Positions 2,397 to 29,815 of a stretch of 36,513 nucleotides of DNA are shown here, piece by piece (position 1 is the first letter of the stretch; the number at the start of each line of letters is the position of its first letter). The translations under genes were made by a program, and so were the position numbers. The notes under the pieces were generated by a model that had not been told where the DNA came from, did not search any database, and was given only the letters and a program-made list of their open reading frames with translations. The DNA lies in contig CAXHJY010001119.1 of the NCBI GenBank assembly GCA_964016885.1, positions 1 to 36,513 of the forward strand. The letters run 5' to 3'. Source of the DNA: Eledone cirrhosa (Eukaryota).

Positions 2397-2502
2397 TATA
2401 TGTAATTAAGGATGCTTCTTTTCGAAGGGGATCAGAAATGAACCACAGTTAAAGTACTCAATACGTTAGTAGAGAAGAGACATATTTATTTCATAGAGAA
2501 AT

Positions 2503-2555
2503 GAATCTTGCATGACTAGAACTGTTTCACTCAAATGAAATCATCAGGAAAGCCC
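2503..2555 (-). ncRNA. Decayed type I hammerhead ribozyme in a PLE-like terminal fragment (~2409-2570)
   Basis: Reverse strand reads GGGCTTTC-CTGATGA-TTTCATTTGAGT-GAAACAG-TTCTAGTC-ATGCA; homologous to 28613-28665 and 29442-29492, but GCA replaces GTA at the cleavage triplet and stem I pairs poorly. Confidence 0.65.
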
Positions 2556-2569
2556 TATTAAATTCGTTA

Positions 2570-2584
2570 TACACACACAAACAC

Positions 2585-2631
<47 letters not shown>

Positions 2632-2703
2632 TACATACATACATACATACATACATACATACATACATACATACATACATACATACATACATACATACAT
2701 ACA

Positions 2704-2735
<32 letters not shown>
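2570..2735. repeat. (CA)n/(CATA)n microsatellite
   Basis: Direct observation. Confidence 0.95.
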
Positions 2736-2825
2736 CAGGGTGTCCCTCAAAAATGTATACACACTTCAACAGCATTCTAATAAATATATCTGTATACATT
2801 TTTTGGGGGGTGGGGTTACACCCTG
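2736..2825. mobile_element. Tc1/mariner-type MITE (opposite orientation to 2317-2396)
   Basis: TA|CAGGGTGT...ACACCCTG|TA; internal CTTCAACAGCATTCTAATAAATAT is the reverse complement of ~2350-2373. Confidence 0.75.
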
Positions 2826-2847
2826 TATATATATTTCTATATATATA

Positions 2848-2905
<58 letters not shown>

Positions 2906-3437
2906 GAAAGAGTAGAAGATATTGGGAAAATATATATGTTGAAATTTTAGAAAGTAAATGTAAGACTATTTGCATAATCTGTGTAAACGTATGATAGGAG
3001 AGTGGTAGCCATTAAAAGATAGATTAGAAATACCAGCTTTTGTAGGAGATTTTATCGAAATGCTACTACAAATATCAGCTTGTGTCGATAAATCTATCTA
3101 ACCTTCTGATATATATTATATTTACTACAGTTTATTGTTAAATAAACGTCTGTCCATTTTTCTGTAGTTTGTAGTTGTCGGTAATAAACTACAGAATTGC
3201 CGGCTTTTTTATTCTGCAAGATGTCACCCGTTTTTCTTCTTAATCAATATCTGCTGTTTGTTTCCCCTCCCCTGCCACTAATCTCTGTGTGTCTGTCTGT
3301 CTATCTGTGTGCCTGTCTGTCTGTCCATCTGTGTGCCTGTCTGTCTGTCCATCTGTGTGTCTGTCTGTCCATCTGTGTGCTTGTCTGTCTGTCCATCTAT
3401 CTATCTACCTACCTATCTGTCTATCTATCTATCTATT

Positions 3438-3797
3438 TGTGGGCCTTAGAAGGAGAATCAGGGTGGAGAGAGAGGCACTGCACCCCAGTAAATTTACTGA
3501 AAGGTGGGAGAATGAAGTTAAAATGGCCCGAAGTGATTGGGCCTTCCCTGTTTATAAGCCTGTAGGTTGAGGAAGAGAGCAAAAGGAAGAAAGGAGCACT
3601 TGCACAACACGCTCCTGAAGTTGAGGGTTGTTCTATCGACGGGGTATTAAACAACCCATTTGTGGCACCTCTTCCCTATTGGGGATTTCGATTGTTGTAA
3701 TTGTTTGTTTTTATATTTTTTACACGACTATGTAAAATCCCCGGCATGTCTTTGTATTGCCCCTTTTCTTGTGCTCCCTTGTGGCAAATAAAGAAAT
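3438..3797 (+). mobile_element. 3' fragment of a non-LTR retrotransposon (Tx1/L1-like) in a (CTAT)n tract
   Basis: Encodes RRIRVEREALHPSKFTERWENEVKMAR, like a Tx1-group ORF2 C-terminus; ends TGTGGCAAATAAAGAAAT then (CTAT)n; paralogues at 3884-3950 and 4283-4695. Confidence 0.55.
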
Positions 3798-3970
3798 CTA
3801 TCCATCTATCTATCTATCTGTCTATCTATATATCTACCTAGCTATCTGTCTATCTATTTTATTAATAGTTTTATTTTCATATACCTGTATGTAAACTCCC
3901 CATTTGTATTTGTCCCCTTCTTTTGTGCCCTTGTGGCTAATAAAGAAATTTACCTATCTACCTACCTATA

Positions 3971-4015
3971 TCATCATCATCGTTTAACGTCCATCTTCCA
4001 CGCTAGCATGGGTTA
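3971..4015 (-). mobile_element. RTE-type 3' tail fragment
   Basis: Reverse complement of AACCCATGCTAGCGTGGAAGATGGACGTTAAACG(ATG)n, also seen at 6157-6198, ~26911-26968, ~30331-30388 and ~30402-30453. Confidence 0.75.
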
Positions 4016-4043
4016 GACTATATATATATATACTCTCTCTCTC

Positions 4044-4161
4044 TAGGAAAAAGTATGACCCCGACTGCAAATCTCAAGCAGTTTCGACGGCTATTTCTGA
4101 GCTCTGCCGTCGGGGTCATACTTTTTCCTATTTCCCACTCTACTACCCTAAGTATTGAGTA

Positions 4162-4165
<4 letters not shown>
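4044..4165. mobile_element. Fold-back PLE-like fragment (family H)
   Basis: Inverted arms 4044-4076 / 4098-4130; homologous to 7262-7487 and 11692-11915; TTGAGTAC at 4155. Confidence 0.7.
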
Positions 4166-4257
<92 letters not shown>

Positions 4258-4282
4258 CTATCTATCTAATTATCTATGTCTG

Positions 4283-27354: not shown

Positions 27355-27700
27355 ATGTAAAAGGTAAACAGAAATACCAACACAATCAGTACAGTATATG
27401 GAAGGGGTATATTAGGTTAACACTTGATATAGCAGGAAGAGGGTCTTAACGTTTCGGACGCTAGTCCTTCATCAGAAGAAAGAATGAGAAATGAGATAGA
27501 TTGAGGGGACGGGTGGGTTGGAATTGGAAAAAATGTCTTTAGATAATAATAACAGGTCCATTCATGTTGAGATCTCTTGGAAAACTGTTGGTGCTGGCGT
27601 TTTGTGTATGATTTGTTTTTTTAGAAAAGTGGATGATGGAGCGCGTCTACCTGAAATGGAAAAGAAAAACATTTTGTAAAAAGAGCTATGCTTGTGCACG
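27355..27700 (-). mobile_element. Penelope-like element 3' remnant (GIY-YIG C-terminus relic plus pLTR)
   Basis: Frameshifted KKQIIHK...TVF/PRDLN (~27566-27625) resembles the PLE endonuclease end E..I..L.T..P.GLN, followed downstream by the hammerhead. Confidence 0.5.
27444..27479 (-). ncRNA. Minimal type I hammerhead ribozyme of a Penelope-like element
   Basis: TCTT-CTGATGA-A-GGAC-TAGC-GTCC-GAAAC-GTT/AAGA; palindromic AACGTT in place of stem III. Confidence 0.75.
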
Positions 27701-27777
27701 TACATAAGTGTGTGTGTGTGTCTGTGTGTTGTTACCCGTCCGTACGAAGCTAAGAAATGTGTGTGTGTGTGTATCAA

Positions 27778-27942
27778 GGTGGCAAATTGGGAGTTATTAG
27801 AATATCGGATAGAATGCCTTATGGTATTTGTTCCTGCTCTCTGTTCTTTGAGTCCAAATCCCGCCGAGGTTAACTTTGTCTTTCATCCTCTCGAGGTCGA
27901 TAAAAAAAAAAAAAAGTACCAGTTTAGTACTGGGGTCGATTC
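27778..27942 (+). mobile_element. SINE family A, diverged
   Basis: GAGTCCAAATCCCGCCGAGGTTAACTTTGTCTTTCATCC...GTCGATAAAA..AGTACCAG. Confidence 0.8.
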
Positions 27943-28146
27943 TTCCTCTCTCTGAAAGAAATCTACTGTACTCTGGTCTGGAAAGGGATGGGCTCCACCA
28001 GGCTTTAAAATACCCAAGAATTGCTGTATGTCAATACGGCGCCGCTACAACTCCATCAGGAGTTACGGGACAATACCATGCTATATATAATATATATATA
28101 TATATTATAATATAAGTATTAATAAAATAGATGTTCTTTTGATCAA

Positions 28147-28207
28147 TTACATTTTATTATACATATTTCGGATGTACAACAGTACGTCCTCATCAGACAA
28201 AATATAA
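28147..28207 (-). ncRNA. Type I hammerhead ribozyme (antisense arm copy)
   Basis: Reverse-complement copy of 28313-28373 with one stem II mismatch. Confidence 0.8.
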
Positions 28208-28312
28208 TGATACATGACATACCCTGAGATGTTAAATGGTTAAGATTTAATCAAGGTAGACTACCTTGATTAAATCTTAACCATTTAACATCTCAGGGTA
28301 TGTCATGTATCA

Positions 28313-28373
28313 TTATATTTTGTCTGATGAGGACGTACTGTTGTACGTCCGAAATATGTATAATAAAATGTAA
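28313..28373 (+). ncRNA. Type I hammerhead ribozyme
   Basis: Stem I TTATATTTTGT/ATAAAATGTAA (11 bp, 2 G.U); CTGATGA; stem II GGACGTAC-TGTT-GTACGTCC; GAAA; short stem III; predicted cleavage after AUA at 28362. Confidence 0.88.
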
Positions 28374-28612
28374 TTGATCAAAAGAACATCTATTTTATTA
28401 ATATTTGTATTTTAATATTAATAACTCCTGAAAATTATTTCCGTTGAGTGCTTCCAATCTACTGCAAAACTCATTCTTTGACATAATCATCGAATATTGT
28501 TTAACAACTTAATACTATATATATATATATATTCCCAGGTTCAATCGGGGGGATAACCACAGGAAGTAAGGTACTCAATACATAGCAGAGTATAAATATT
28601 TAATATAGAAAT

Positions 28613-28665
28613 GGCTTCTACAAGACTAGAACTGTTTCATTCGAAGGAAATCATCAGGAAAACCC
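28613..28665 (-). ncRNA. Type I hammerhead ribozyme in a PLE-like fragment (~28533-28665)
   Basis: GGGTTTTC-CTGATGA-TTTCCTTCGAAT-GAAACAG-TTCTAGTC-TTGTA/GAAGCC. Confidence 0.78.
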
Positions 28666-28814
28666 TATATATATATGTGTGTGTAAATGAAGTAATTCCG
28701 TCGGAAAGGTCCAGGAAAAAAGAGTGCTCTATGTAGGTTACAGAGCTTAATATATATATATATATATATACAATGATATTAAATAAATGGAAACTATATT
28801 TATAAAACCATATT

Positions 28815-28876
28815 TATTCTATTATATATATTTCAAGGGTTCCAAAAATTTTGGTACGCTATCATCAGATAAAATA
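28815..28876 (-). ncRNA. Type I hammerhead ribozyme
   Basis: TATTTTAT-CTGATGA-TAGCGTACCAAAATTTTTGGAACCCTT-GAAATATATATA/ATAGAATA; 8-bp stem I. Confidence 0.75.
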
Positions 28877-29119
28877 CAAAATGTTTTATAAATATTTGAC
28901 ATAACCAAGGATAATATACCTTCATGGTTCAAGTTATCCTGGAAAGTGAAGGGAAGAGAGAAGAAAAGTCAGATATTTAAATATACACATCATTTGCATA
29001 CTCATATTAATAATTTTAAATATCTGACTTTTCTTCTCTGTTCCCTTCACTTTCCAGGATAACTTGAACCATTCAGGTATATTATCCTTGGTTATGTCAA
29101 ATATTTATGAAACATTTTG

Positions 29120-29181
29120 TATTTTATCTGATGATAGCGTACCAAAATGTTTGGTACCCTTGAAATATATATAACAGAAAA
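29120..29181 (+). ncRNA. Type I hammerhead ribozyme (other arm)
   Basis: CTGATGA 29128-29134; GTACCAAA-ATG-TTTGGTAC stem; GAAA 29162-29165; stem I is weakened by mismatches. Confidence 0.7.
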
Positions 29182-29319
29182 AATATGGTTTTATAAATAT
29201 AGTTTCCATTTATTTAATATCAATTGAATACTTACTCCAGAAATCTGTTGAGTGCTTTGAATCAGTTGTAAACATCTCTATTTGTTGGATTTCCAACAAA
29301 TTAAATATCTCTTCTACAT

Positions 29320-29355
<36 letters not shown>

Positions 29356-29441
29356 GTAGGTCCCGGGTTGAGTCGGTGATAACCACAGTAAGTAAGGTAC
29401 TCAATACATGGCAGAGTAAAAATTTTTTATTTTATAGAAGG

Positions 29442-29492
29442 AGCTTCTACAGGACTAGTACTGTTTCATTCAGATGAAATCTTCAGGAAGCT
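29442..29492 (-). ncRNA. Type I hammerhead ribozyme in a PLE-like fragment (~29355-29818)
   Basis: AGCTTC-CTGAAGA-TTTCATCTGAAT-GAAACAG-TACTAGTC-CTGTA/GAAGCT; perfect 6-bp stem I, 4-bp stem III, palindromic ACTAGT loop. Confidence 0.85.
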
Positions 29493-29815
29493 GGGTGTCA
29501 TATTAAGTTCTGGTATTTATACATTTAGGTAGTGGTAAGGGAGGGGTGGTGGCTGGGGGGGGGGGGATTTTGGGGGGTAGGATGGTATTTAGATACACAG
29601 GACCACAACATGGCACAGGCCGTTTTTTCTTGGGGGAGTGGTCAATTAGCCAGAGTGCTTTTTTGAAATAAATAAATAAATAAATGAATAAATAGATAAA
29701 TGAATAAATAAATAAAGAAAATAAATAAAAAAAATAAAAAATAAGTAAAAACCCCAAGATATATAGTAGGGAAATTTTTTTAGGTGGGTTGGTAATAGAA
29801 GATAAACAAGACCGA

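Follow-up and report, generated by a model that had tools for sequence, protein, structure and literature searches.

A covarying bulged hairpin adjoining the ends of Hydra-type Penelope-like elements, predicted from a locus of Eledone cirrhosa

A stretch of 36,513 nucleotides (nt) of Eledone cirrhosa DNA (contig CAXHJY010001119.1; "the window" below means this whole stretch) raises the question of why a single octamer, TTGAGTRC, recurs in it beside modules that share little else. The window is animal DNA in which microsatellites and repeats resembling short interspersed nuclear elements (SINEs) are abundant, and the modules, built of hammerhead ribozyme cores and fold-backs, resemble 3' ends from Penelope-like elements (PLEs). 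A preliminary description had proposed that the octamer is a conserved cis element of PLEs: either a recognition or priming signal for their reverse transcriptase (RT) or endonuclease, or a promoter-type element. Judged from its pairing, the octamer, in its general form TTGAGYRC, supplies the 3' side of a hairpin bulged by two bases, RCUC-[stem-loop]-UU-GAGY-RC.

Pairing and conservation of the hairpin

All eleven listed matches to TTGAGTRC are present, with the same coordinates and strands, and dinucleotide shuffles give a mean of 2.73 and a maximum of 8, reaching 11 in 0 of 100 cases. The matches are not independent and fall into six families: A with three copies (2454, 28571, 29397), D with four (4155, 7311, 7430, 11742, where 7311 and 7430 are the arms of a single fold-back), and B (28444), C (29248), E (11518) and F (27223) with one each. 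To call them otherwise unalignable was slightly too strong: an alignment of B with C reaches 71% across 41 nt at the motif and 81% across 26 nt at the hammerhead. With six families against 2.7 matches expected, the count alone is weak evidence, and it is position that carries the signal. A (TA)4+ run starts 24-77 nt after the motif in 11 of 11 cases, the interval of 40-75 nt first proposed holding for seven; 9.4% of non-repeat background sites share this position, the distance window having been picked after inspection of the data. For five of the eleven a complete hammerhead core lies upstream on the same strand, with 46, 49, 75-77 and 84 nt between cleavage site and motif, and 53 nt (counted from the sequence) for the copy at 2454; the spacing of about 35-80 nt suggested before thus becomes 46-84 nt. 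Family D retains just the GAAAC..GUC half of the hammerhead, about 43 nt upstream of the motif, and upstream of the motif in families E and F no hammerhead was found in the window.

Opposite GAGY, an upstream NCTC is present in all eleven matches and in a twelfth copy, the two-base TT bulge being unpaired; between NCTC and the bulge lies a second, upper stem whose sequence and length vary by copy. The paired RCTC, the upper stem and the twelfth copy (28724..28746, minus strand), which falls outside the TTGAGTRC pattern, had all been overlooked: the wider pattern T[TA]GAGYRC adds three matches in the window, of which the one at 28724 forms a complete hairpin in which GCTC faces GAGC and the bulge is TA. 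The remaining hairpins lie at 2454..2475 (-; first pair T-T), 28571..28591 (-) and 29397..29417 (-) in family A; at 4137..4162 (+), 7311..7336 (-), 7412..7437 (+) and 11742..11767 (-) in family D; at 28424..28451 (+) in B, 29234..29255 (+) in C, 11518..11579 (-) in E, with a long upper stem-loop, and 27202..27230 (+) in F, with one A-G mismatch. The predicted pairing probability of GAG exceeds 0.6 in nine of the eleven window copies, and a pairing descriptor finds 10 sites in the window, where 100 block shuffles average 0.13.

Covariation was assessed in two sets of hairpins; MAFFT did not align them structurally, so pairs were counted by anchoring at the ends. Among 12 families represented by one copy each, chosen by the linear motif or by protein and not by pairing, the upper three pairs hold in 32 of 36 instances, while permuted 3' strands give a mean of 20.5 of 36 and reach 32 in 0 of 100000 trials. 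In 24 distinct hairpins, eight of which came from a descriptor that itself demands pairing, four columns covary with two-sided changes (for each column, 0 in 20000 shuffles), and sliding the partners out of register lowers the count from 67 of 72 pairs to 14-33. CTC/GAG is invariant in this set, the base pair is A-T in 6, G-C in 17 and G-A in 1, the first upper pair is T-A in 14 and C-G in 10, and the bulge is TT in 17, TA in 4 and TC in 3; in 23 of the 24, an upstream A-to-G change goes with T-to-C in the motif. Fold energy prefers the sense strand in 19 of 24, which is weak evidence.

Contigs of four sequencing runs were matched to 28262-28665 at 80% likeness (16577, 52, 16306 and 119 of them), the variant shares being depth-weighted and mirroring subfamilies. 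Depth peaks over the hairpin and the hammerhead were set aside, as the depth of contigs does not rank parts of an element, and no RNA run was among the sequencing runs listed. Family A, found in all four runs, has no listed variant of at least 5% at the 19 stem, bulge and RC sites; two of three loop sites and six of 11 neighbouring spacer sites (28593-28603) vary. The possibility, raised at the outset, that the motif is no better conserved than its flanks thus does not hold for this family, where the motif outlasts them across thousands of contigs. In family B the T-C mismatch of the window copy is atypical: 79% of copies have G at 28429, making the pair mostly G-C or G-T. C>T changes at two CpG sites (56% and 64%) and at a further site (18%) keep a G-U pair on the sense strand, G>A, the converse change, is uncommon (11% and <5%), and A frequently takes the second position of the bulge (39%). 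Such G-U-keeping changes favour the sense strand over first-strand cDNA as the folded form.

As a chance control we used metagenome sequences: of about 210 stretches with ACTC..TTGAGTRC..(TA)n, (TA)6 being required, 113 were taken, and a perfect 3-bp upper stem occurs in 6/113 and a hammerhead in 0/113, with no real element found among these matches. Seven of the eleven window matches pass the same strict rule; the four failures have a long loop, an altered first base or a single mismatch. A motif-plus-(TA)n scan of viral contigs (21 loci, 6 distinct) gave no such stem by eye and no real element, and Hydra-type pattern and protein searches of viral contigs gave no match. An Rfam search of the window at E up to 1 returned no hammerhead family and no relevant RNA family for the hairpin, and none of six weak Rfam matches on the 5' leader of one full-length locus (L144) reaches the gathering score. 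The hammerhead cores and stems of the window were seen by descriptor, self-cleavage being predicted. The matches that Rfam did report in the window are miRNA-like only and arise from fold-backs and simple repeats.

Several observations weigh against the structural interpretation. An alternative fold is preferred in two of the eleven window copies (both of family D), the isolated hairpins are weak (mostly -2 to -12 kcal/mol), and the predicted fold of the leader of another full-length locus (L146) does not have both hairpins formed. One family B change near the loop, at 28440 (32%), disrupts a pair, and shared descent of the sequences inflates the shuffle and permutation tests. The window also holds an internal counter-example to the association with hammerheads claimed at first: a complete hammerhead module at 27448-27475 (-) has neither motif nor hairpin. 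Taking both sides together, we regard the hairpin as very probably a real structured cis element.

Hydra-type elements as carriers

The modules of the window combine insertion before (TA)n runs with a canonical hammerhead near the 3' end in families A, B and C. Type I cores lie at 2514..2547 (by sequence reading), 28624..28657 and 29453..29486 in family A, all on the minus strand. Fold-back B (28097..28423; arms of 163 nt, 96% complementary) has cores at 28160-28196 (-) and 28324-28360 (+), and fold-back C (28774..29222; arms of 208 nt, 96% complementary) at 28823-28868 (-) and 29128-29173 (+). Inverted, 5'-truncated copies with a one-sided tail are also present: five fold-backs have one tailed arm, and one, that of family D at 7311 and 7430, has two long arms. 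By contrast with non-LTR retrozymes, whose signature is head-to-tail tandem hammerhead units, the modules are single or inverted, and 0 of 109 tandem-repeat rows in the window cover them. A tblastn search of the window with seven proteins found no PLE open reading frame (ORF; best E 0.43); thus, the window copies are not autonomous members. They are likely 3'-end fragments that, by resemblance, would derive from Hydra-type elements.

Hydra-clade PLEs target (TA)n and have a 3' hammerhead (PMC8557442, supplement). Reading by eye the six Hydra consensus sequences in the available part of that supplement places the hairpin after the hammerhead in the coral element Hydra-2_Amil and the sea cucumber element Hydra-2_Ajap; Hydra-1_Ajap opens with two copies about 61 nt apart, Hydra-1_Crog has a degenerate copy, and in the consensus sequences of Hydra-1_Amil and Hydra-1_Obim no clear copy was seen. 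Six motif variants occur in 24 places in the same material, 21 of them outside the Hydra file (matches split by line breaks and further variants are missed), and one of these 21 has the full hairpin: a perfect copy about 130 nt past the stop codon in the Naiad 3' untranslated region of the record preceding Naiad_Obim, which may be a chance match or a shared signal.

With a peptide pattern that the published Hydra consensus sequences have in common, and with two protein searches, we recovered Hydra-type ORFs on contigs of five bacterial metagenome-assembled genome (MAG) records and on one short contig of a sixth. These contigs are evidently host DNA. Of 28 endonuclease-defined loci, seven at contig ends or without a hammerhead were excluded; the 21 informative ones come from few hosts and include same-family repeats. 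A complete hairpin lies 67-83 nt after GAAAC in seven of them and a one-mismatch hairpin in another, one hairpin is cut internally by inversion, and in eight the microsatellite is reached before the hairpin position. Related loci encode an RT motif and GIY-YIG (Pfam PF01541 at a sub-cut-off E of 0.00033 in one of two proteins), and one L137 element is by eye near-identical to the 3' end of Hydra-2_Amil. On the other side, four of the 21 have neither hairpin nor microsatellite junction, and the placement of the window families in this clade is itself drawn from resemblance. What stands of the earlier proposal is a conserved PLE cis element, given its presence in protein-defined Hydra-type PLEs and its conservation beyond the flanks in family A; what falls is the linear 8-mer, which is half of a covarying hairpin.

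Two side observations concern these records. Several GTDB representative MAG records (loci L137-L179) contain numerous contigs with animal retroelements, suggesting contamination by host DNA. One contig of a bacterial MAG (CBDDBN010000027.1, 491637 bases; loci L135/L136) has an inverted pair of Hydra-type PLE ORFs with one bacterial-looking flank, as either a chimeric assembly or a genuine transfer would give.

Twin hairpins and two kinds of element end

In two full-length loci the 5' leader has a pair of hairpins separated by 62-68 nt. Along L144, the endonuclease end is followed by the hammerhead, by hairpins at 837 and 899 and by the ATG at 943; the ATG of L146, at 578, comes after hairpins at 462 and 530, and in both the second hairpin terminates 20-23 nt before the ATG. 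A hairpin also lies ahead of the ORF start in L153. Since hairpins 1 and 2 precede the ORF in the leader, the tail is the start of the leader of the next unit, and the one-sided PLE tail is the interval between the two hairpins. In the window such tails open with or contain the hairpin in family B (28424 to about 28515) and family C (to about 29323). The two hairpins within each of L146, L152/L153 and L144 share the bulge and the last two bases, as if matched to a protein, a side observation on three cases only.

Short ends mostly stop just ahead of hairpin 1. In 12 comparisons with tailed copies of the same family, the exact match ends 3-6 nt before it in eight: in the window the short arms stop 6 nt (the family D copy at 4137..4162, which itself ends at the motif followed by (CT)n(TA)n), 3 nt (family E) and 5 nt (family D, 11742..11767) before the hairpin. 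Short-end joints are also seen in family A, where (TA)n abuts 28598, a point 6 nt ahead of the hairpin, in 6 contigs of one run and 3 of another, the tail at 28533-28597 being absent from short-end copies; one contig ends family B at 28418. The distance is mostly 3-6 nt even without TA-rich bases upstream, as in family D and L153. Long ends lie 31-42 nt past the motif in ten locus copies and 38-77 nt past it in the window, and 5 nt (L152 versus L153) or 0-4 nt (L146) before hairpin 2. As the distance from the long end to the motif varies while that to hairpin 2 is short, the constant distance is to the hairpin 3' of each end. Of the relation between motif and element end expected earlier, constancy thus applies to ends just 5' of a hairpin, and not to the hammerhead or the downstream (TA)n.

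This account faces objections of its own. Four of the 12 short-end comparisons stop 11, 13, 20 and 20 nt before the hairpin, with AT-rich similarity persisting, and TA microhomology blurs every end; the short arm of B (20 nt, exact) and the long end of L146 (0-4 nt) were read from printed sequences. The relation of long ends to hairpin 2 comes from two families, neither from the organism of the window, and in the window a second hairpin and an ORF are absent. Further, the full-length copy L146 and two tail-only pieces (window 28675-28749 and L179) start at or near hairpin 1, and such 5' ends are more simply accounted for by a nick immediately 5' of the hairpin than by priming. On this evidence it is probable that the hairpin fixes the element ends. 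The tail-only insertions (window 28675-28749; L179, minus strand, about 770-850) are of note in themselves, consisting of a hairpin and spacer between two TA runs without hammerhead or body; no hammerhead was found in the window piece, which holds the twelfth hairpin.

How the ends might be fixed is suggested by the PAc protein of the Poseidon element of the anole Anolis carolinensis, which, when purified, initiates reverse transcription internally, from two sites that flank the tail; it depends on RNA 3' of these sites, cuts and extends both strands of the target, and is a predicted dimer (PMC11167929). On balance we favour a reading in which each of the twin leader hairpins anchors the element protein on the RNA, with reverse transcription starting a few bases 5' of it, as this would fit the internal starts of the anole element and their need for RNA 3' of them. 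A read-through transcript of a tandem unit would carry hammerhead, hairpin 1, hairpin 2 and ORF, and the protein would bind both hairpins. Priming from nicked (TA)n DNA would occur at AU-rich bases lying upstream of either hairpin: if copying began before hairpin 2, hairpin 1 would be included and a long, tailed end would result, and a start before hairpin 1 would leave a short end. Both starts on opposite target strands would yield head-to-head fold-backs with a single tailed arm, as in the window, whose modules would be the 5'-truncated 3' ends of such elements, with hairpin 1 only retained. More tentatively, and with the odds slightly against it, the twin hairpins could be a single origin with one hairpin per dimer subunit, each fixing an RT start 3-6 nt upstream. 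RT recognition or priming, among the functions first proposed for the motif, is thus what the element ends suggest to us.

Two alternatives are very improbable. The motif may act as double-stranded DNA, for instance as a promoter site or as a site for homeodomain proteins, of which TTGAGTG, the NK-class site, is an example; the motif lies in the pseudo-long terminal repeat (pLTR) or 5' leader, where PLE promoters are reported (available parts of PMC8557442 and PMC3846280). That the motif is no linear 8-mer and covaries as a hairpin argues against this part of the original proposal, for a linear site predicts neither the A-to-G partner change in 23 of 24 hairpins nor an upper stem whose sequence changes with pairing kept. 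Alternatively, the families may merely be related, with the motif as leftover homology or a chance pick. The eleven matches do reduce to six families, flanks are partly similar between A and D and between B and C, and the motif was picked after the fact; but the widened descriptor gave new copies in independent loci along with the twelfth window copy, the 10 window sites stand against 0.13, and flanks vary where stems do not.

The strongest rival, though an unlikely one, accepts the structure and gives it to the other enzyme, as the preliminary description had also envisaged: the GIY-YIG endonuclease would bind the hairpin in single-stranded DNA, either cDNA or an unwound pLTR, and nick a few bases 5' of it, producing both the 3' ends and the 5' ends at hairpin 1. 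Such 5' ends are what L146, the window tail-only piece and, roughly, L179 display; the tail of the D. virilis element is needed for endonuclease recognition (as cited in PMC11167929), and bacterial Ssn enzymes of the GIY-YIG type read single-stranded DNA hairpins by sequence and structure (PMC11893778). Set against this are the G-U-keeping changes, which favour the sense strand and not first-strand cDNA, the in vitro reproduction of the anole tail as two RT start sites (PMC11167929), and the TA-rich patch internal to the element before hairpin 1, through which microhomology could account for the 5' joins. Less probable again is that the hairpins of the 5' leader act in the RNA as an operator or a packaging signal, for translation control or cis preference, the ends adjoining them through AU-rich patches that pair with (TA)n. 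The position of hairpin 2 just before the ATG in L144 and L146 and the TA-rich bases before many hairpins would suit this; the tight end-to-hairpin distance, kept in family D and L153 even without TA-rich bases upstream, speaks against it.

PLEs are the closest retroelement relatives of telomerase, and how they choose their RNA and why one end may have a tail are open questions. In the parts of the work consulted, the anole in vitro system, the only one found, mapped internal starts and no conserved signal (PMC11167929). A hairpin at a set distance from both end types offers a model that a few RNA mutants could put directly to the test, and a marker by which annotators could recognise the boundaries of elements, as well as short non-coding derivatives, in animal genomes rich in (TA)n. 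If true, a twin-hairpin origin would account by sequence alone for both the one-sided tail and the asymmetry of the fold-backs; it would also amount to a portable signal, about 25 nt long, with which a telomerase-related RT could prime internally at (TA)n.

Neighbouring repeats and comparison with known systems

The interval 28080-29500 of the window holds five PLE-end modules (B, A, the tail-only piece H, C and A) within 1.4 kb, joined by TA runs, that is, repeated insertion into one microsatellite; the same nesting is seen in L137, L150, L161, L165 and L168. The hammerhead module without a hairpin spans 27357-27720 (-), has a GAAACGTT core and probably belongs to another PLE clade. Short palindromes whose ends read CAGGGTGTCCC..GGGACACCCTG, similar to miniature inverted-repeat transposable elements, lie in TA context at 2318-2400, 2736-2826 and 5935-5985. 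Long minisatellites occupy 8423-10233 (units of 41-50 nt), 16929-17343 (42), 18482-24743 (48) and 31877-32513 (44), and several of them seem to have arisen by amplification of parts of dispersed repeats, SINE-like or other.

PLEs are already known to have fold-backs, tails and hammerheads and to target (TA)n. With the Hydra clade (PMC8557442) the window shares (TA)n targeting, the hammerhead near the 3' end and fold-backs with a one-sided tail, and the family A hammerhead resembles the Hydra-clade hammerheads in the tabulated part of that work; unlike full Hydra elements, the window holds non-coding 3' pieces only. Its tails of about 60-100 nt are longer than the 30-40 nt described for endonuclease-positive PLE insertions. 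In the main text of PMC8557442, as far as covered, the hairpin goes unmentioned ("stem-loop" occurs 0 times) and the tail is ascribed to endonuclease resolution. We found no description of the hairpin in the openly available literature searched; a search for 'ttgagtac' with 'Penelope' returned no paper, and in the accessible part of a 2026 preprint on retrozymes and PLEs the terms 'hairpin', 'stem' and 'tail' were not found.

The anole PAc element, of another clade, has an AC-rich stem-loop start region inside its ORF, and the sections of PMC11167929 consulted report no cross-family motif; the hairpins described here are instead repeated, covarying and bulged, and lie in a non-coding leader just 3' of each end. 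The Ssn nucleases (PMC11893778, consulted in part) combine a GIY-YIG enzyme with the NTS hairpin signal, in which, as here, the loop is free and the stem constrained; being bacterial, single-domain and specific for single-stranded DNA, they offer an analogy for the nicking alternative only. The published PLE-type hammerhead, with a short palindromic helix III and a variable helix II, is matched by families A, B and C; that work concerns the ribozyme only, and the hairpin is a separate element 30-70 nt past the cut site. Short structured, sometimes bulged RNAs that recruit an RT are found in the 3' stem-loops of SINEs and long interspersed nuclear elements (LINEs), the 3' untranslated region of R2 and the epsilon signal of hepadnaviruses, where they sit inside the copied region or template the primer. 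By analogy with these, the hairpin may act as an RT-recognition stem-loop, of a known kind in a new form: unlike them it would lie 3' of the start, outside its own copy, and occur twice.

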